44,695 bases of DNA from a virus (lineage: Duplodnaviria > Caudoviricetes). The stretch covers positions 1-44,695 of IMG/VR virus record IMGVR_UViG_3300032373_000033; one strand, 5' to 3'. The position numbers and the translations under genes are program-made. Positions 1,774 through 44,111 of this stretch are shown here, one piece after another. Under the pieces are notes generated by a model, which did not search any database, was not told the origin of the DNA, and saw only the letters and a program-made list of their open reading frames with translations. How positions within the stretch are numbered: the stretch's first letter is position 1; every line of letters starts with the position of its first letter.

Positions 1774-2212
1774 GCGCACGGGCAACCGGCCCTATAAATG
1801 GGTCCGCGTAGCTGACCCGAAGATCGAAAAGGACCTTGATGGTCCTGAGTATGAGTGGGTGATCCACCTTAACGGTCGGATGTGCTCGCACTTCTCGGTC
1901 TTTGAAACTGAAGAGGAAGCCACTGCCGCTCTTTCGCTTGCCTCGGAAGACATGTTCAAAGAATGGGAGACCTTCCAAAACCTACGAAGAGAGTTTGAGG
2001 CCAAGGTTGAGGAAGGCGATCACTCAGCTGTTTCCCCGACTGCTCCAAAGAACAGGATCAGCTATTACGCTGATGCTAAAGTAATCCAAAGGGCAGCTGC
2101 CCGATTACGTCGCCTATCGGTGCCTATCTTTCTGTGCCTTCGAAAAGACGGCGTAGTCGCACCGTGGTACCCTAATGCCGAAGATATCCTCGCAACTGAC
2201 TGGAAAGCTTAA
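1724..2212 (+). CDS. DUF2829 / Tad2-like protein with a large internal insertion
   Basis: N-terminal MFEEILPLLRAGKTARRTG and C-terminal PWYPNAEDILATDW resemble the F..AL..LK.GK.V.R.GW and W.PS..D.LA.DW signatures. Confidence 0.7.
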   Translation: MMFEEILPLLRAGKTARRTGNRPYKWVRVADPKIEKDLDGPEYEWVIHLNGRMCSHFSVFETEEEATAALSLASEDMFKEWETFQNLRREFEAKVEEGDHSAVSPTAPKNRISYYADAKVIQRAAARLRRLSVPIFLCLRKDGVVAPWYPNAEDILATDWKA

Positions 2213-5200
2213 TGGCTCAAAGATCACGCACCGATTTCGCTCGACTTGTAGCTATGTTCCAAGATACGGATCTAGCTTACTCTGAACGTATCCGAACACG
2301 ACTCGACGCAATCGCGCGAAGGGTCCAAGACCTTCTAGGCGCCGCCCCTGATTGCGGAGATGCCCCTGCTCCGCCTACGGCGCTCACAGCTACAGCGGAT
2401 GACTTTCGCGTTGACCTTGCCTGGACGACCGAGGCCGAGGCGGTACGCTATCGAGTCTATCGGAGCCTGGAGCGCACTACCGCGTATACGCTCGTTGGGC
2501 TGACAACTGACGGTAGCTACATGGACACCGGGCTAACCGCCGATGTCGAGTATTTCTACTACCTTCTGTCTGAGGATGAGTGTGGGCAGCTTTCAGGACA
2601 ATCTGAAGTTGTCTCGGCTACCCCGACTGATGGATCGAGCGGCGGGGACCCTCCGGGAGTCCCGACTGGTCTCGCTGTTGACGCATTCGACGAGAACAGC
2701 GTCGATCTCAGCTGGGACAACCCCACGGGCGGTACCGTTTCTTTCAATCTTGAGCGGTCGCTTGAAACGGGCACCGGCTTCGTTGAAGTAGCCTCTTCGA
2801 TTGTCAGTACTAACATCGTGGACGCGGGTCTACTCGAAGGTACTACGTACTACTACCGTTTGCGTGGAGTAAACGCGGCTGGAACCACTAGTACGCCCTC
2901 GTCCGAAGTGTCTGTCACGACTGACACGACCGACATCGTTCCGCCGCCTGTTCCTACGTTGACCGGCGTAAACGCACTTGATGAAAGCTGCGAGTGCGAG
3001 TGGAGCGGAGTCGCTGCCGCTGATCTTGCTGGCTACGAAGTGGGCTACCACACGGTGTCGGCGGGTCCCTATACCTACGTCAACGCTGCGCTTCTAACTA
3101 GTGTTACGGTGGGCGGTCTGACGAACGACACGGAGTACTTCTTCGTTGTTCGTTCTTACGATGAAAGCGGTAACCGCTCGGCTGATTCTAACGAGATCGC
3201 CGCCACGCCGACTGATTCTGGAACGGGTGATCCTCCGGAACCGCCGACTAACGTTGGTGTAACCTCGCCGGTTCTGAATGAAGTCAAAATCACTTGGGAT
3301 TACAACTTCACTGAGCCCGCCCTGGCGAACTTCAACCTGTACCGCACGGATAATCCGCGTGGTGGGGTGTACGTTCTTGTTACGGATGCACTCGGCACAG
3401 CTGCACGTGAGTACACTGATACTGGGTTGGATTCTACGACCACGTACTACTACTACCTGACTGCTGAAGACACGTCAGCCCAGGAATCTGATCCGTCTGT
3501 GCTTTCGGACGGTATCGTGCCCGAGGGGTTCAGCCCTAATGGCAGCGGTGAGCCGATCGGAGATCAAGGTGACGTACAGCCGCAGGGCATTGACGGAGAT
3601 ACCGGCTTGCCCTCAGGCTACCGGGCTCCTGGTTACACCTTCGATCATGTTGTCGATCTGACGAACTACACAGGCGAGACTCACGCCATGCAGGTCGCTG
3701 GCGCAGTTCTTCGATCTCAAGTAGCGGATGGAACTATCGAGCTTGCAGAAGACGGTTCTTCGGTGATCGGTGTGTGTCTTCCGGCGCGAACCGAACGACG
3801 GGGTGCCGGGTTCACTTTCGTCAGTGGAAAGTTTGTCGGTACGAACGTAAGCGCTTGTCATATCCCGCATGAGCAGAACTACGAGCTTCACTTTATTGCG
3901 CCGTGGACAGGCGGAGCCGACAAGACCGCGGCTATGCGCTCTGTTAGCGGAATCGCGGATGACTTGACGCTCTCTACTCCGCTCGATCCCTCGAACTTCC
4001 AGTATCGTATTGTCGGCGCAGATGAGACAACGGGTGAAAGCCTTAACCCAGGCTCTGTGTTTGGGTTTCTCGGCGGCAACACAGATGTCCGTAATGTAGG
4101 GTGGGCCGGTGACATCCACTGTTGGGGTATGCGCTTCGCCGGTGGCGGCTCGCAGTGCCTAGAAGCTGGATGGAGCGCACAGGGTGAGGCGGGGCAATCG
4201 CTCAACTTCCACCTTTGCCGCTTTGATGGTGATGACGTCTCGTACCCGCTTACGGGGCGCGGTCAGAAGTGGGGCATGTCTACGTATGACTTGCTTCTTA
4301 GCTTCCACGGCTGCTACGTTGACTTCCCGTGGTCCTGGGAACACGCTATCTATCAGCGTGATACACCTTGGGGCGATGAGAGTCGAGAGTACCTGCGGAT
4401 CTACCGCTGCGGTGGACAGGCCATTCAGCAGACCTTGCGAGGCAACGACGGTAACCCTGGATCTGGCAACCAGTTCCCCGAGCCTAACCCCGGAACTACT
4501 ACGTACGATCACTTCGTATCGCAGTACAGCTCTCGGGCAAAGTTCAGAAACGCTGCTTCACTTACGCGGTACGGACCGAACCAGGATCTCCTAATCCGAG
4601 ACTCTCTGATTCTACAAGACCTGTACGTAAACGGTTACTTCGATGTAACTGGCGAGAACGCGTGGCCACCGCCCGATCCTTTCGCTGACCCGCTTGGCGA
4701 TGGATCCTGGGTAGGGACCGAGGGAATCCTAACGATCTCTTGGCCTAACCCTAACCAACAGCCGACCTTCTACGACGACGAAGGATTCTGCGGCGGGGAC
4801 GTGACTATCCAGGATAGTTTCTTCTACACGATTGCACCAGGGCGCCCGATGATTCAGATCGGGATTGCCAAGAACGTTGATGTTCAGGACAGCGGAATCT
4901 GGACTGGACCCATTGGTGTTCCGCACACGCGGGCTTCAGCGGGATCTCAATCTCGAATTCAGTTCACTACGACCACTGGCACCAACGGCACGCTGTACGC
5001 TCCTGTGGGTTTCGAGCCAGAGTTCGTTATCCAGAGTATCAACTGGACGGGCAATAACACGGGTGCGCTGAAAACTCAGTTCAACTCTATTACGGGTATT
5101 GATACGTCTGCTTTCGTTGATCCTTCTTTCCGTTTCCTGAACCTTGCGCCGGGCGTGGACCAAGGTACCGCAGATCAAACTCTGACGTGTACTAATGTTC

Positions 5201-5247
5201 CGTATCTCCCGGGGAGCGGGCTGCCGGCTGATCTCTCTGTGAGCTAA
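2212..5247 (+). CDS. 1011-aa protein with four fibronectin type III domains and a probable beta-helical C-terminal region (candidate virion adhesin)
   Basis: Four repeats of P..P..L...V.L.W...Y.VYR...Y.D.GL...T.YYY...S..S; TAATG coupling to the upstream gene; no signal peptide. Confidence 0.8.
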   Translation: MAQRSRTDFARLVAMFQDTDLAYSERIRTRLDAIARRVQDLLGAAPDCGDAPAPPTALTATADDFRVDLAWTTEAEAVRYRVYRSLERTTAYTLVGLTTDGSYMDTGLTADVEYFYYLLSEDECGQLSGQSEVVSATPTDGSSGGDPPGVPTGLAVDAFDENSVDLSWDNPTGGTVSFNLERSLETGTGFVEVASSIVSTNIVDAGLLEGTTYYYRLRGVNAAGTTSTPSSEVSVTTDTTDIVPPPVPTLTGVNALDESCECEWSGVAAADLAGYEVGYHTVSAGPYTYVNAALLTSVTVGGLTNDTEYFFVVRSYDESGNRSADSNEIAATPTDSGTGDPPEPPTNVGVTSPVLNEVKITWDYNFTEPALANFNLYRTDNPRGGVYVLVTDALGTAAREYTDTGLDSTTTYYYYLTAEDTSAQESDPSVLSDGIVPEGFSPNGSGEPIGDQGDVQPQGIDGDTGLPSGYRAPGYTFDHVVDLTNYTGETHAMQVAGAVLRSQVADGTIELAEDGSSVIGVCLPARTERRGAGFTFVSGKFVGTNVSACHIPHEQNYELHFIAPWTGGADKTAAMRSVSGIADDLTLSTPLDPSNFQYRIVGADETTGESLNPGSVFGFLGGNTDVRNVGWAGDIHCWGMRFAGGGSQCLEAGWSAQGEAGQSLNFHLCRFDGDDVSYPLTGRGQKWGMSTYDLLLSFHGCYVDFPWSWEHAIYQRDTPWGDESREYLRIYRCGGQAIQQTLRGNDGNPGSGNQFPEPNPGTTTYDHFVSQYSSRAKFRNAASLTRYGPNQDLLIRDSLILQDLYVNGYFDVTGENAWPPPDPFADPLGDGSWVGTEGILTISWPNPNQQPTFYDDEGFCGGDVTIQDSFFYTIAPGRPMIQIGIAKNVDVQDSGIWTGPIGVPHTRASAGSQSRIQFTTTTGTNGTLYAPVGFEPEFVIQSINWTGNNTGALKTQFNSITGIDTSAFVDPSFRFLNLAPGVDQGTADQTLTCTNVPYLPGSGLPADLSVS

Positions 5248-5270
5248 GAGTAACAGCTGTCGCTTCTCTT

Positions 5271-5305
5271 GACCCGAGTACCTTGACTGGTGCTCGGGTC
5301 TTTTT
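5271..5305 (+). terminator. Intrinsic terminator
   Basis: GACCCGAGTACC-TTGACT-GGTGCTCGGGTC stem followed by TTTTT. Confidence 0.85.
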
Positions 5306-5323
5306 GTTTACAAAATAAGAACA

Positions 5324-5890
5324 ATGTCGAACGAAACCGATAAACTCGTTGAGACCCTCCGGTTACAGCTAGTTTCAGACGAACTGTCGGCATTCCTGTG
5401 GAACACGACTAGAGAGGCGATTGCCTTTGTGAGTCCGACGGGGGTGTTGCGTCTTGTCAACCCCGCGTTCTCCGAACTGTTGGGTTACGCAGTAAACGAG
5501 TTGGAAGGTATGACCTTTCAAAATGTCACTGTTCGCGATGACATTGTCGCGGATGAGGAAGAGTTTAGCCGTCTGCTGCGCGGCGAGATCCAGTCATACA
5601 CGATGGATAAGAAGTATGTGACCAAGTACGGCAAGGAAGTAACCGTGTCCTTGAAGGCGGTCAACTACCGAACTGGCGTGCTGGTGGTCGGCCAGGCGCT
5701 ACACCTGGACGTGTTCAGCTTCGATCATCTGGCTCCAGCGCAGGAGACACGGATCATTCAACTTCTGATCGGTAGGTGGCTCGTGGAGAACTGGAAAAAA
5801 GCGCTTGTACTCTTGTTCCTGTTTATCGGAGGAGCTAGAATCGACCAAGTCATAGAGTACGCCCTTCGATTCCTTCCCGTGCAAAATTAG
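5324..5890 (+). CDS. PAS-domain protein with a C-terminal hydrophobic helix
   Basis: PAS/PAC pattern G.LRLVNPAFSELLGY...EL.G..F...T...D...Y.MDKKY.TK.G; C-terminal KKALVLLFLFIGG. Confidence 0.8.
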   Translation: MSNETDKLVETLRLQLVSDELSAFLWNTTREAIAFVSPTGVLRLVNPAFSELLGYAVNELEGMTFQNVTVRDDIVADEEEFSRLLRGEIQSYTMDKKYVTKYGKEVTVSLKAVNYRTGVLVVGQALHLDVFSFDHLAPAQETRIIQLLIGRWLVENWKKALVLLFLFIGGARIDQVIEYALRFLPVQN

Positions 5891-5895
5891 CGTGA

Positions 5896-8400
5896 ATGCC
5901 CAAGGACTCCGTCGATTCTGATATCTACTCCCTCATGTTTGACCTTGGACAGAAGGATGTCCAAGAGATGCTACGAGAAAAAAGAGCTGCGGGGCGCTTG
6001 ATCGAGACAGGACCAGGGGCGCGGCTGGCGGCTGAAGCTGCCGGGGCTGTCCACGAGTATTGCAGGACTTGGCTTAAGGGTAGCGACGGGGTCAAGAATC
6101 GTCGCAAGAGTAAACCTATGCGTATCCGGCAGATGCTCGGAGAGCTGGGCTCCCTTAGGGCAGCTGCGGCGGCTACGCGTACAGTTATCAACACCCTGGG
6201 GGCATCGACTGAGGAGGTACCTACCTCGAAGCTCCGGAGAACTCTTGGCGAAGCGCTGAAACAGGAAATGATCCTCCAGCATATTGCGGAGGAAGATCCT
6301 ACTTTCTGGAGCCACCACGTTCAGCGAAGGTATCAGGGTTTGTCCGATAAGCGACAAGCGATCAAGAGCGCTATCAAGAGAAGCAAGGATATGCCCGAGT
6401 GGGACGGCGGGGACTGCTCGGCTGTCGGTATGTTCTTCATTGATGCTTTCAAGCATTGCACGGATCTTCTCCATTTCTACACGCTCGCCGGATCCAGGAG
6501 TGAGCATGATTTTAGGAAAGGCTTCTCGGAGTTCGTCCGTCTTAGCTCAGAGGTCGAAACCTGGCTCCAGACGGCTGCGGGTGCTATGGTTATGGCGACT
6601 GTCAAGCCTCTACCTATCACAGAGCCGCCGCTGGATTGGGGACCGGACGAGCCCGGCGGGTACCACGAGTTCATGCCGCGCTGTACTGACATCATCCGAG
6701 CGAGCACGAGGCAGCAACGAGAGAGCCTTCCCACTTCTGGTGCGGACGAGGTCTACCGTGCGATTAACACGGCGCAGCGGACACCTTGGCGCATCAACTC
6801 AAGGGTCTGGGAAATCTACTGCTTGGCGCTTAAGCACGAGTGGCCGGACACCGGACTGTTGACACCGGAGCCCGTTTTCCCAACTAAGCCCACGCATGAG
6901 TTTGTCAAAGGCGACGAGGGTTGGGCGACGTACGGAAGACTGAAGCACAGATTCTTTCGACACAGCCAAGAGCGCAAAGGTCAGACGAGACGCCACGCTG
7001 TCTCTCGTGCTCTGGTCGAACACTACCTTGAGAAAGATAGTCTGTACTTCCCGCACTTCTTTGACTTCCGGGGCCGTCTGTACCCTTTCGGAGCTTGGTT
7101 TAACTACCAGGGAACAGATCATATCCGAGGATCCTTGGAGTTTGCGCACGGCAAGCCGCTGTCTACAGCTGGATCAGTAGATTGGTTCAAGATCCACGGA
7201 GCTAATTGCTGGGGCGAAGACAAGTGTTCTATGGCTGATAGGATCAGCTGGGTCCACGAGAACTCTGCCAAGATCGTAGACTGCGGCGAGAACCCAATTG
7301 ACAATCGTTGGTGGACTGAGGCAGACAAGCCTTTCTGCTTTCTGGCGTGGTGCTTCGAGTATTCAGACTGGTACAAGGATTCCCGTAACTTCGTCTCGCA
7401 TCTTCCGATCGCTATGGACGGTTCGAACAACGGGCTCCAGATCTTTTCACTGCTGACACGAGATGAGCGGGGAGGACGCTCGACGAACTGCGCTCCTACA
7501 TCTGAGCCCCAGGATATCTACTCAGATGTGGCAGACAAGGTGACCGCTGAGCTGCGGAGCATTGCTTCGAGTCACGCTGAATCCGCGAAGGAACTGAAGC
7601 ACCGTAGATGGGCTAAGGGTATCTTGAGGATGTGCGATCGTTTCTATGACGGTAAGATCCCGCGCAAAGCTACCAAGCGTCCCGTTATGACCTTGCCGTA
7701 CGGCAGCACTCGGTTCTCCTGTCAGCACTACATGACTGATTGGTACCACGACACGGTCCGAGACTTGAATCTAAGCGCGGACGAGGCGCCCTTCGCACCG
7801 AAGGAGAGCTACAAGGCGATGACGTGGATCGGGAATCTAGTCTGGGACGCTGTCGGGGATACTGTGGTTAAAGCCCGAGAGTGTATGGACTGGCTCCGGG
7901 ACGCTTCAGATCTCCTGGCAGCATACGGGAAGCAAACTGAGTGGAGCACACCTACGGGTTTCCATTGCATCCAACAGTACATCACGGGTGTCCGCAAGCG
8001 AGTGATGATGAAGTCCGCTGGAAGTGGAAACATGACTGTTCGTGTGTGGGAGCCCGATAAGCGCGTGGACAGCCGTAAAGCCCGTAATGGTTTCTCACCG
8101 AATTACGTGCATTCTCTCGACAGCGCCGCGATGGTCCGGACGATCAACCTGGCAAGCATGGCAGGAGTTACACACTTTGCAATGATCCACGACAGCTTTG
8201 CGTGTCATGCGCACGATGCCCCCTTGCTGGCGCGGTCGCTTCGAGAGGCTTACGTCGAAGTATTCGAAGTAGACCTATTGAAAACTCTGCGCGACGAGCT
8301 ACAATCTTGCCTTCCTGAAGACGTTCAACTTCCAAAGCTCCCTGAGTACGGAAGCCTTGATGTGGAACAACTAAACAACTCAACCTACTTTTTTGCATGA
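5896..8400 (+). CDS. Single-subunit DNA-directed RNA polymerase (T7 gp1-like)
   Basis: DFRGRLY, motif A DGSNNGLQ, motif B RKATKRPVMTLPYG, PNYVHSLD, motif C IHDSF, C-terminal YFFA. Confidence 0.98.
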   Translation: MPKDSVDSDIYSLMFDLGQKDVQEMLREKRAAGRLIETGPGARLAAEAAGAVHEYCRTWLKGSDGVKNRRKSKPMRIRQMLGELGSLRAAAAATRTVINTLGASTEEVPTSKLRRTLGEALKQEMILQHIAEEDPTFWSHHVQRRYQGLSDKRQAIKSAIKRSKDMPEWDGGDCSAVGMFFIDAFKHCTDLLHFYTLAGSRSEHDFRKGFSEFVRLSSEVETWLQTAAGAMVMATVKPLPITEPPLDWGPDEPGGYHEFMPRCTDIIRASTRQQRESLPTSGADEVYRAINTAQRTPWRINSRVWEIYCLALKHEWPDTGLLTPEPVFPTKPTHEFVKGDEGWATYGRLKHRFFRHSQERKGQTRRHAVSRALVEHYLEKDSLYFPHFFDFRGRLYPFGAWFNYQGTDHIRGSLEFAHGKPLSTAGSVDWFKIHGANCWGEDKCSMADRISWVHENSAKIVDCGENPIDNRWWTEADKPFCFLAWCFEYSDWYKDSRNFVSHLPIAMDGSNNGLQIFSLLTRDERGGRSTNCAPTSEPQDIYSDVADKVTAELRSIASSHAESAKELKHRRWAKGILRMCDRFYDGKIPRKATKRPVMTLPYGSTRFSCQHYMTDWYHDTVRDLNLSADEAPFAPKESYKAMTWIGNLVWDAVGDTVVKARECMDWLRDASDLLAAYGKQTEWSTPTGFHCIQQYITGVRKRVMMKSAGSGNMTVRVWEPDKRVDSRKARNGFSPNYVHSLDSAAMVRTINLASMAGVTHFAMIHDSFACHAHDAPLLARSLREAYVEVFEVDLLKTLRDELQSCLPEDVQLPKLPEYGSLDVEQLNNSTYFFA

Positions 8401-39103: not shown

Positions 39104-40191
39104 CCGACCAATCTAGCTGAGCCCTGCGGAGCTTCAATGGATTTCCCGCTCGATTCTTTTCATGCTCTGGGGCGCTTACACAAGCATAACTTGAGTGAGC
39201 GGGAACCTTTCGACTGAAGCTTCTGTAAGGCTCTCTGCTGGACTTTGACGGCGATATGAAGGATTACACTCGGATCCTTCTAGAGTCCAGCACGGGGCAC
39301 TACAGGAGCTGTGAGGGGAAGCTGGGTGGATACTGATAGTAGAGCGTGCTGTGGGAGCGTCGGGAGTCTTGTTATTTTTGTGTATGGTGGGGACCCTAAA
39401 AACGGTGGGTAAGTTGAGGGGAAGATAAGCCCCACTTGGTGCCCGTTTAGAGGGTAAAAAGAGAACCGCACCCAATCAGGAGGAAAGGCGAAGGTACATA
39501 TGGTTATACATAGGTACGCATGCGTGCGCGAGGGCTCCTTTAGAGCGTCTTGGTTGGGTCCACGTAAAGGTCGAAGAGATCCCCCTGTAGAGCGTCTTGG
39601 TTCGGGCTCTGTAAGGGGTGCTATCTTCCCCCTAACTTCCTATCAAGCGTCAGGGTTCCTGATTTACATTCAACGTACCGACCAAAAAGTTGCTTAGCGG
39701 TACGAGCCCCCCTATGTTGTGTATGTTTGACCTTCCTTCCCCCCTTGGGGTCGCCGCCCTCTTTCCGGAAATCCGTATTTTCTGCGCGGTGTGCCGTGCG
39801 AGGTGGCAGGGCATCGACCATAAGTAGGGCATTGACAATCGGTTACATAGTCCTACAGAGACTGTGAGCCTTTGCTTTTGGGGTTTATACTTAGGGGGAG
39901 ACACCTAGATAGCACTAGGACCACACTCTAACTATGCCAGAATGGCAGTGTGTTAGGGCTTTGTTCGGATTTGCACAGGTTTGGCTGCTTTTGTGAAATC
40001 ATCCACCGTCGTAAACCCTTGTCAATCCACGACTTACCTCCACTACCCAAGAAAAGCCAAGGATACCCCGAAACAATCAAGCTCGCCGTTCGATATACCT
40101 TGCAGCTTCGGTTACCTTCGGTGACTCGAAGACCAAGCGGTCAAGCCACTCTCACAACGGCTTGACGTACTACTCTCACAACGGCCTAACA
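39104..40191. other. Divergent non-coding region; probable physical genome ends and early promoters
   Basis: No convincing ORF; lies between the leftward arm and the rightward early genes; contains short direct repeats. Confidence 0.6.
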
Positions 40192-40616: not shown

Positions 40617-40960
40617 AGACAACCCAACGACACACACCTACGCCCGTTGAGATTCTACTCGCTTGGCAAGCATTCGAGTGCGACTGCATGGACGAGGTAC
40701 CGCAAGAGGAGGCGTGGGTAGTTTCGCTCCGCGGTATGTCCTGCGGTCCTGCGTTCACTCCTACCGCGTATGCTTTCAAGCTACACGCTGACGCGGTCCG
40801 ACGCCTAGGACGGATCACCTGGTCACACAAAGGTATTCAGGACTTCAACAACATCGCCGAGAACCGGGGTGCGGTCGTACCCGATCTCGCTTCGCGGCTT
40901 GTAGTGACTATCAGTCTGGAGATGGTGCCGTCGAGTCTTGTCGAGGGGCGTCAAGAGTGA
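40613..40960 (+). CDS. Hypothetical early protein
   Basis: ATG at 40613; GTGA overlap with the next gene. Confidence 0.6.
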
Positions 40961-42057
40961 ACAAGCTTTATAAAGGGTACGCAATCGCTCCCTATTCCCA
41001 TCTAGCCGGTGCCGACCTGAGAGGTGCCAGCCTGAAACACGCCAACCTGAAAGGTGCCAGCCTGAAAGGTGCCGACCTGGAAGGTGCCTACCTGAGCTAC
41101 GCCAACCTGAAACACGCCAACCTGAAAGGTGCCAACCTGGAAGATGCCGACCTGAAAGGTGCCGACCTGAAACACGCCAGCCTGGAAGGTGCCGACCTGA
41201 AACACGCCAACCTGGAAGGTGCCGACCTGAAAGGTGCCGACCTGGAAGGTGCCAACCTGGAAGGTGCCGACCTGGAAGATGCCAGCCTGGAAGGTGCCGA
41301 CCTGAGAGGTGCCAGCCTGAAAGGTGCCAACCTGAAAGATGCCAACCTGGAAGATGCCGACCTGAAAGGTGCCAGCCTGAAACACGCCAACCTGAAAGGT
41401 GCCGACCTGGAAGGTGCCAACCTGGAAGGTGCCGACCTGGAAGATGCCAGCCTGGAAGGTGCCGACCTGAGAGGTGCCAGCCTGAAAGGTGCCAACCTGA
41501 AAGGTGCCGACCTGGAAGGTGCCAACCTGGAAGGTGCCGACCTGGAAGATGCCAGCCTGGAAGGTGCCGACCTGAAAGGTGCCAGCCTGAAAGGTGCCGA
41601 CCTGGAAGGTGCCGACCTGGAAGATGCCAGCCTGAAAGGTGCCAACCTGAGCTACGCCAACCTGAAACACGCCAACCTGAAAGGTGCCAGCCTGAAAGGT
41701 GCCAACCTGAAAGGTGCCAGCCTGGAAGGTGCCAACCTGAAAGGTGCCAGCCTGAAAGGTGCCAGCCTGAAAGGTGCCAACCTGGAAGATGCCAGCCTGG
41801 AAGGTGCGACGGTACCAAATAGTCAAACCTGGGAAGACTGGTTGAGCACAGGTGTACGGGACTTCTTTGATCATTCCGCCGTGAATCTATCTGACATACG
41901 CACCTGTTGGTGCTGTCACACATGGAATAACTGCCCGCTCCATGTGGGTTTCGGAGTCAACGGGTTATCTGAGATGCCCGAGGCTCTACAAAAAGATGCC
42001 GCGTTCTTCGTAGCTACCTTCGACGCGGAGCTAGTACCCGTGTCCTGCCTCGACTAA
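40957..42057 (+). CDS. Pentapeptide repeat protein
   Basis: About 53 A(D/N/S)L(K/E)(G/D/H) units; C-terminal Cys/His domain [13 protein letters not shown]. Confidence 0.93.
41011..41805 (+). repeat. 15-bp tandem repeat, 53 units
   Basis: GCC-(GAC/AAC/AGC)-CTG-(AAA/GAA)-(GGT/GAT/CAC); 795 bp divided by 15. Confidence 0.95.
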
Positions 42058-42166
42058 CCTCGACTACCGCAAGGGCTCGCGCAGTAGCCCGCAGTGACTC
42101 CAGGGTCACCGTAGCTTCCTGTAAGGATGGAAGCCAAGTGCCACGGACGGCAACTCGATACCCTAC

Positions 42167-43085: not shown

Positions 43086-43451
43086 ATGAAAGTGAAGACA
43101 ATCAACGGCTGGACTAAAGCTAAAATCATCGACAAGCTCGAACAAATGATGCCTGATTCTGGAAGATGTATAGAAGAGGACGGCGATATGTGTCAGTACC
43201 GCAATGATGACGGAAAGGCTTGTGCGATTGGAGCGTTCATCCCAGACACCTTTAGGGAAGCTTTGGGGTATATCGGATACGTCAAAGCCCTGCTGAATGA
43301 GTACCCTGAAGTCAAAGACTACATGCCCATTACTCTAGAAACCCTAGATTTGTTTCAGTGCGTACATGATAGATGGAACGATGATCTATCGGAGTATGCG
43401 TCTCCGAAGCTGGCGTGCATCGCCTGGGTCCGGGAACACGTAATCGACTAG
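43086..43451 (+). CDS. Hypothetical early protein, paralog A
   Basis: INGWTKAKIIDKL..MMP..G...C.YR...GKACAIGAFIPD...Q.VHD. Confidence 0.75.
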   Translation: MKVKTINGWTKAKIIDKLEQMMPDSGRCIEEDGDMCQYRNDDGKACAIGAFIPDTFREALGYIGYVKALLNEYPEVKDYMPITLETLDLFQCVHDRWNDDLSEYASPKLACIAWVREHVID

Positions 43452-43501
43452 ATCCGAAACGGCCTCGGCCGTCTACGGGTAGCTCCCGTACTGACGAGGA
43501 T
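43452..43501 (+). ncRNA. Type II hammerhead ribozyme
   Basis: ATCC-GAAA-CGGC(CTCG)GCCG-TC^TACGGG(TAGCT)CCCGTA-CTGACGA-GGAT: all three stems plus the CUGANGA, GAAA and GUC core; predicted cleavage after C43473. Confidence 0.88.
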
Positions 43502-43536
43502 ACGCCCGGTAGCGCCGGTCTGCACGCTGAACACTT

Positions 43537-43716
43537 ATGCTGACCAAAGAACGTCGCGAATACTCGATCGTTGCCCTCGATTCCTGGGGCAACCAATACT
43601 CGACTTACATCATCGTCGAAGACGACTCAGAAGAGGAGGCGCGGCACTGCGCTGAACGGTGGGCCTGTTCGGAATCTTTGGATGTCTCAACCCTTTCTGT
43701 TATCGCGAGGAACTAG
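43537..43716 (+). CDS. 59-aa hypothetical protein
   Basis: Read manually (MLTKERREYSIVALDSWG...); fills the gap between the ribozyme and paralog B. Confidence 0.55.
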   Translation: MLTKERREYSIVALDSWGNQYSTYIIVEDDSEEEARHCAERWACSESLDVSTLSVIARN

Positions 43717-43718
43717 AA

Positions 43719-44111
43719 GTGGGTAAGTACGTACCGATTAACGGCTGGACGCGCGCCCGGATCATTGAGAAGTTGCGCGAAAAGATGCCCGAGCGCGGTC
43801 AAGCCTTAGACGAATTTAGTGGAGTTTGTGTGTTTCGCGATGAGCGCGGCAACGCTTGTGCTCTGGGAGCTTTTATCCCAGACGGTCACAAAGCTCTTAT
43901 GGGTAACGGGAGTCCCTACATGATCTTGAATGTGTACTCAGATCTGGCGGATATTTTCCCCTTGCGTTCAACTGCTTTGCAGCTTCTGCAAAATACTCAC
44001 GATACAGCGCGTTGTGAGCGGTATACTCCTCAGCCAGTCGATCTCTGCGTTCAATGGGTCCTAGATAACGTAAAACCTGACAAAAACGAACTTGAACCCA
44101 CACCAGCCTGA
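43719..44111 (+). CDS. Hypothetical early protein, paralog B
   Basis: INGWTRARIIEKL..KMP..G...C.FR...GNACALGAFIPD...Q.THD; GTG at 43719 aligns with the start of paralog A. Confidence 0.75.
   Translation: MGKYVPINGWTRARIIEKLREKMPERGQALDEFSGVCVFRDERGNACALGAFIPDGHKALMGNGSPYMILNVYSDLADIFPLRSTALQLLQNTHDTARCERYTPQPVDLCVQWVLDNVKPDKNELEPTPA

Follow-up and report, generated by a model that had tools for sequence, protein, structure and literature searches.

Does a T7-like phage cut its early transcript with a ribozyme of its own? The question is raised by a hammerhead motif in the virus record IMGVR_UViG_3300032373_000033 of IMG/VR (the window, meaning the whole stretch of 44,695 nt that was analyzed), for which a first-pass annotation had proposed autonomous cutting of the early transcript and uncoupling of two paralogous genes. 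Passages of both Weinberg 2019 (PMC6765202) and Eckert 2023 (PMC10085705) describe the purpose of such hammerheads, of which phage DNA holds many, as still undefined. The early regions of T7-like phages are well suited to examining this purpose, since in T7 a host enzyme makes the cuts in the corresponding transcript.

A type II hammerhead motif behind a stop codon

We found a real, complete and well-formed type II hammerhead motif in the expected place, at 43452-43501 on the + strand. Every element that the first-pass annotation had listed for a full core is present there: CUGANGA, GAAA and the NUH triplet lie around a three-way junction, stems I, II and III have 6, 4 and 4 Watson-Crick pairs, and the core-adjacent stem III pair is present. 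The order GAAA, GUC and CUGACGA, with stem II open and stems I and III closed by loops, makes the permutation type II. The motif also directly follows the TAG of the gene at 43086-43451, as had been claimed, with stem II starting at the next base. By the hammerhead consensus the cut falls after the GUC triplet (C17), and the cut put forward earlier, after C43473, coincides with our predicted site. The elements are as follows.

43449-43451 (+): stop codon TAG of the upstream gene, with G43451 immediately 5' of stem II
43452-43501 (+): type II hammerhead ribozyme with open stem II and loops of 4 nt (stem III) and 5 nt (stem I)
43452-43455 with 43498-43501 (+): stem II, four Watson-Crick pairs (A-U, U-A, C-G, C-G), with G10.1-C11.1 present
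43456-43459 (+): GAAA core segment
43460-43463 with 43468-43471 (+): stem III, four G-C pairs
43471-43473 (+): GUC triplet, its G being the last stem III base
43473/43474 (+): predicted cleavage site after C17 (C43473), from the hammerhead consensus and the sequence
43474-43479 with 43485-43490 (+): stem I, six Watson-Crick pairs
43480-43484 (+): loop I, whose first base is U1.7
43491-43497 (+): CUGACGA core segment

The Rfam check proposed in the first-pass annotation gave a divided result. RF02276 (Hammerhead_II) was matched over the full model with E 1.5e-4 in the 1.2 kb searched; the score of 33.0 bits is 4 bits short of the gathering cut-off of 37, and for this reason an Rfam scan of the window at gathering level returned 0 hits. 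RF02276 under-scores the short-loop geometry to which this hammerhead belongs. Hence, we class it as type II on structural grounds and do not count it among the curated members of RF02276.

Scanned with a descriptor that covers all three permutations, the window genome gave a single match, at 43452-43501, and no other ribozyme or Rfam RNA was credible there at E<=5. When 100 genomes simulated with an order-3 Markov model were searched on both strands, 5 matches had all stems of at least 3 pairs and 0 had all stems of at least 4 pairs. A contig of run X1 (depth 28) is identical letter for letter at the ribozyme, and X1 is possibly the source itself, so this agreement is not independent; runs X2 and X3 have no coverage of the ribozyme.

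The early region of a T7-like phage

Judged by its gene content, the window is a T7-like (Autographiviridae-type) phage. It encodes a PHROG 414 RNA polymerase at 5896-8400 (E 1.5e-208) that is 30-34% identical to cultured T7-like polymerases, along with a DNA polymerase, a major head protein and a terminase, and its T7-type replication and head genes run in one direction (PHROG 414, 17, 267 and 38). The contig is circular, since its ends overlap by 127 bases and one X1 contig (from a microbial-mat metagenome) spans the junction. Read across the junction, the hammerhead locus therefore precedes the integrase and the polymerase. Genes on the + strand from about 40500 lead through the junction into these two genes and, by analogy with T7, would form the early region. 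Both the T7-like assignment and the early location that the motif had been given are thus supported by the polymerase and the circular contig. A sigma-70 scan gave a single site, on the minus strand, and no promoter on the plus strand; the neighboring gene gaps showed no conspicuous long hairpin of the RNase III type. The genes and the leader that matter here are as follows.

937-1773: integrase
43086-43451 (+): upstream gene, 121 aa, of a large unnamed phage family
43502-43536 (+): 35-nt leader of the 59-codon ORF
43537-43716 (+): 59-codon ORF directly downstream of the ribozyme, ending 2 nt ahead of the next start
43719-44111 (+): paralog of 43086-43451, 38% identity over 120 residues

The family of the 121-aa upstream protein has 753 representatives at E<=0.001; the protein has no Pfam family, and its confident structural model (pLDDT 95) has no PDB fold match at E<=0.001. 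Six residues (C46, G49, P81, Q91, H94 and D95) are invariant in 61 sequences of the family of 43086-43451 and 43719-44111. As to a link between this family and hammerheads, just 2 loci were retrieved, too small a number to judge from, and neither record has an RF02276 match. With the start of the downstream gene set at GTG 43719 from the alignment, the paralogy behind the uncoupling claim is borne out; the two genes are not neighbors, however, as the 59-codon ORF intervenes. This ORF, for which no homolog was found, is probably a small gene that fills the gap between leader and paralog. Its leader has no Shine-Dalgarno motif, which is also absent at most starts inspected in the window genome. 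Of the 85 nt between the upstream gene and the 59-codon ORF, the ribozyme takes up the first 50; 5 of the 8 regional gaps are <=21 nt or overlaps.

Several other features were seen in this genome. Just ahead of the integrase gene, a strong GC-rich hairpin followed by T-rich bases (832-870) is terminator-like, and the gene after the integrase (1724-2212) has a Tad2-like (Thoeris anti-defense) domain (Pfam PF11195, 41.7 bits). Two ORFs occupy the interval between the integrase region and the RNA polymerase (2212-5890): one of 1011 aa, whose repeats look like fibronectin III, and one of 188 aa that resembles a PAS domain, the domains being named by eye. A 366-aa early-region gene (40957-42057) is pentapeptide-repeat-looking with a 15-nt period. 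The 109-nt intergenic gap at 42058-42166 has three short tandem hairpins; it is no more stably folded than its shuffled versions (z +0.42), no Rfam family matches it, and a pattern search gave 4 matches. In the non-coding stretch dividing the leftward from the rightward gene blocks, the arms of a 26-nt inverted repeat (39821-39846 and 40011-40036) each carry TTGACA and face each other across 164 nt, possibly as paired promoters or operators.

The closest relative found (L285/G135, polymerase 40% identical, record 69% complete) has the same order of integrase and Tad2-like gene as the window. There, too, a similar Tad2-like gene follows the integrase, and a 405-aa ORF stands at the position of the ORFs of 2212-5890. 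Its early region has no hammerhead; a weak RF02276 match in G135 (E 0.015) was rejected, being without the CUGANGA core and on the strand opposite the polymerase. Orthologs of the locus were found neither by protein or 20-nt pattern scans of IMG/VR nor by blastn of cultured phages or a word-based protein search.

Related hammerheads and an absent tertiary contact

One exact type II pattern was found at no fewer than 125 IMG/VR loci (at least), with about 880 stretches estimated for the collection. Among the matches listed, stems I and III had at least 3 pairs in 120 of 132, and many of the pattern-matched loci held further hammerhead copies. In 32 same-geometry sequences, including the window copy, 448 of 448 cells were paired and two-sided changes occurred at 11 of 14 pairs, these rows being chosen for having stems and being family members, not orthologs. 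A stop codon adjoining stem II is common among family members, and the window hammerhead is not unusual in kind or placement.

We found a T7-type polymerase in 1 of 91 hammerhead-bearing records (42 + 49, mostly fragments, a subset of the pattern loci); this record, G082, carries a pair of type II hammerheads on the polymerase strand, between the first of its early genes. A second set comprised 20 near-complete T7-like IMG/VR records (at least 90% complete; 7 + 13) chosen by polymerase alone, the set of 7 being what remained once G082, which served as positive control, and two non-T7 records were set aside. RF02276 matched 5 of these 20 (G118 and G157 with 3 copies each, G138 with 2, G121 and G147 with 1 each) and had no match in the other 15. 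On inspection G121 has two type II hammerheads and one of type III, G138 and G147 look related, and a sixth record, G158, has a U4C core variant. In all six T7-like records, the hammerheads share the strand of the polymerase and are surrounded by small genes.

A strict scan upstream of T7-like polymerases gave 3 matches in 0.99 Mb, all sense and two of them in one genome; downstream, 0 matches were found in 1.56 Mb. Of 50 bacterial genomes with a T7-like polymerase, at least 4 had matches and at least 3 (G185, G209 and G206) had linked ones, the linked count being a lower bound because the whole-genome search scored only 102 candidates per genome. Five copies in G185 lie 36-39 kb from the polymerase on the same strand. 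Since the early genes of several proviruses lie at the far end, counts in the 10-kb flanks of bacterial polymerase loci are too low. Clusters of 2-5 hammerheads between small early genes occur in these other T7-like phages and proviruses.

G118:C1:21778-24858: hammerhead cluster
G121:C1:35682-37329: hammerhead cluster
G138:C1:2656-3467: hammerhead cluster
G157:C1:2490-4416: hammerhead cluster
G185:C1:2082011-2084967: hammerhead cluster
G082:C1:13115-13604: hammerhead cluster

In several of the clusters, an additional U separates the core from stem II, and there is a loop I/tail pairing. A type II hammerhead-like sequence with a U4C core change was also seen in a T7-like early region at L361:4954-5033, with U1.7 and its partner A kept. 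Three hammerheads from other T7-like records gave short, uninformative matches only in a blastn against cultured phages, among which about 2,700 records matched the polymerase.

Passages of PMC9217987 describe a trans-Hoogsteen contact between U1.7 and an A for fast minimal hammerheads and report that an attempt to exploit it brought no gain. We compared the window copy with 77 other distinct hammerheads that have the same 17-nt stem I region (look-alikes). U is at position 1.7 in 73 of the 77 and A immediately 5' of the 4-pair stem II in 74; 73 have both, so every look-alike with U1.7 also has the A. Read across from that paper, the conserved pair may be the trans-Hoogsteen contact. The window copy is the sole one of the 78 with U1.7 and without A just 5' of stem II: U1.7 is present, but the partner position for the stem I-II contact is taken by G43451. 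One base beyond lies A43450, which might substitute for the missing adenine.

The pseudoknot between loop I and the 3' tail is likewise absent, with at most 2 pairs possible to the first 8 tail bases. By eye, most of the 31 long-loop members, all of which lack U1.7, look built for this pseudoknot, and a passage of PMC3088659 gives a type II hammerhead as 20- to more than 100-fold slower once it was broken. Because its partner adenine is a G and it has no pseudoknot, the window hammerhead would have a rate at cellular magnesium nearer that of a minimal hammerhead; its sequence marks it as a likely slow or partial cutter. The missing adenine, which the first-pass annotation did not mention, is the one distinctive and cheaply testable feature of this copy.

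Folds predicted from the one sequence include a rival helix of 43504-43508 with 43476-43480 that competes with stem I and gives the best predicted fold of a short fragment. A predicted 4-pair hairpin (43506-43509 with 43515-43518) would sequester the rival strand. For transcripts from 43452, the gap between the best fold and the hammerhead fold is 1.3, 5.3 and 1.4 kcal/mol at ends of 43502, 43510 and 43525. The rival fold is thus ahead by 5.3 kcal/mol in the transcript ending 9 nt past stem II, which is as bad in 3 of the 77 look-alikes. With a tail of at least 24 nt, the gap is ordinary compared with look-alikes, and with a downstream flank of at least 44 nt, it is no worse than theirs (2.1-3.1 against medians of 2.9-4.7 kcal/mol). 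In most contexts, stem II is predicted to form with low probability.

Probable cleavage of the early transcript and known systems

We favor, with moderate confidence, the reading that this type II hammerhead cuts the long early transcript once, after C43473, and probably slowly or partly. Its sense orientation, its position after a stop codon and the same placement in other T7-like phages support such transcript cutting. The products of hammerhead cleavage carry a 5'-OH and a cyclic phosphate, those of RNase III a 5'-phosphate and a 3'-OH. The single cut would split the early transcript in two. Stem III and a 2',3'-cyclic phosphate would form the 3' end of the upstream RNA; the downstream RNA would start with a 5'-OH followed by stem I, at a distance of 63 nt from the next start codon. 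In the type II permutation, both products would retain a hairpin at the cut. The two halves would gain separate ends, lifetimes (a stability effect that we infer) and translation starts without a host nuclease. By analogy, the hammerhead may replace RNase III here.

It is rather unlikely that the hammerhead is a decaying passenger that arrived with a gene cassette of stop codon, ribozyme and leader and is now too slow to matter, its tertiary contact having been lost by a change at the third base of the stop codon. This reading would account for the G where 74 of 77 look-alikes have A, for the local competing fold, for the single copy and for the absence of hammerheads from the early region of L285/G135 and, by RF02276, from 15 of 20 near-complete T7-like records; yet all 13 core bases (CUGANGA, GAAA and UC) and 14 pairs, which drift would be expected to erode soon, are intact, and U1.7 and the stem I geometry of 6 pairs and 5 nt are retained. 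An outright chance match to the consensus is highly improbable: the score under the gathering cut-off and the lack of an ortholog are in keeping with it, but 0 of the 100 simulated genomes gave stems this long, the exact intergenic and sense placement is common to the family, and a 6-pair stem I, U1.7 and a 4-pair stem II are the commonest phage geometry.

The slow core, the rival helix and the freeing downstream hairpin could also make a timed or regulated cutter, in which only part of the message is cut and cleavage is set by transcription speed or by a ribosome that ends translation at the TAG adjoining stem II. We consider this decidedly unlikely. The fold gap does swing from 1.3 to 5.3 to 1.4 kcal/mol as the transcript grows (43502, 43510 and 43525) and the stop codon does abut stem II, but the folds come from one sequence with no covariation for rival helix or hairpin, longer flanks bring the swing within the look-alike range, and a stop codon beside stem II is common in the family.

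The favored reading, a single slow or partial cut, can be extended to the proposal that a sizeable minority of T7-like phages uses hammerheads for the role of RNase III in T7 and that TAG in place of TAA tunes the cut in the window phage; we regard this proposal as unlikely. If it is true, the TAG removes the tertiary adenine, and partial cleavage sets the ratio of full-length to cut early messages.

Phage hammerheads and the idea of transcript processing have been in print since 2011, and the window copy adds one example. Passages of Perreault 2011 (PMC3088659) describe type II hammerheads as very common in bacteria, often near prophage integrases, and propose that cleavage divides long phage transcripts into mRNAs the length of an operon or a gene; three prophage hammerhead clusters cleaved in vitro, one of them also in E. 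coli, and 14 of 18 consensus-conforming hammerheads were active. In the literature covered (mostly non-subscription, the Dataset S1 alignments of Perreault aside), we found no explicit link between hammerheads and T7-like phages, and PMC3867540 had no match to T7 terms. Within its class the contact hardly ever varies, and the window copy offers a natural departure from it by a single base. Multi-copy T7-like proviruses are better test cases because the window phage is uncultured and carries one copy.

The RF02276 hammerheads, as passages of Perreault 2011 present them, share with the window copy the core, the permutation, the position between small phage genes and a nearby integrase; the window copy differs in being without the loop I/3' tail pseudoknot, in its 4-pair stem II and in being single, not clustered. 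The Agrobacterium tumefaciens C58 prophage (Perreault 2011, Fig. S2) likewise has hammerheads between small genes ahead of an integrase. It has three copies with ardA and MarR neighbors, whereas the window has one copy with unrelated flanking genes, and the early window ORFs scanned gave no MarR or ardA match. The C58 order (ArdA, small genes, MarR, integrase) resembles that of the T7-like proviruses G121, G138 and G157, in which a MarR-like gene comes after the hammerheads (the integrase is shown for G121); from this similar gene order, the tested C58 cluster may itself be T7-like.

HHphage of the haloviruses HF1 and HF2 also lies in the early-gene region of a dsDNA virus, and a passage of Perreault 2011 (PMC3088659) places a mapped transcript 5' end within 3 nt of its cut site. 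It differs in belonging to an archaeal virus, in its variant core and in its position, the first gene of the transcript following after 13 nt. The functional analogy is with the RNase III sites of T7: in passages of PMC8708148, the early transcript is cut by host RNase III, e.g. at R1.1, and cuts between early genes mature and protect the mRNAs. These T7 sites differ from the window hammerhead in that they require a host enzyme and a long stem.
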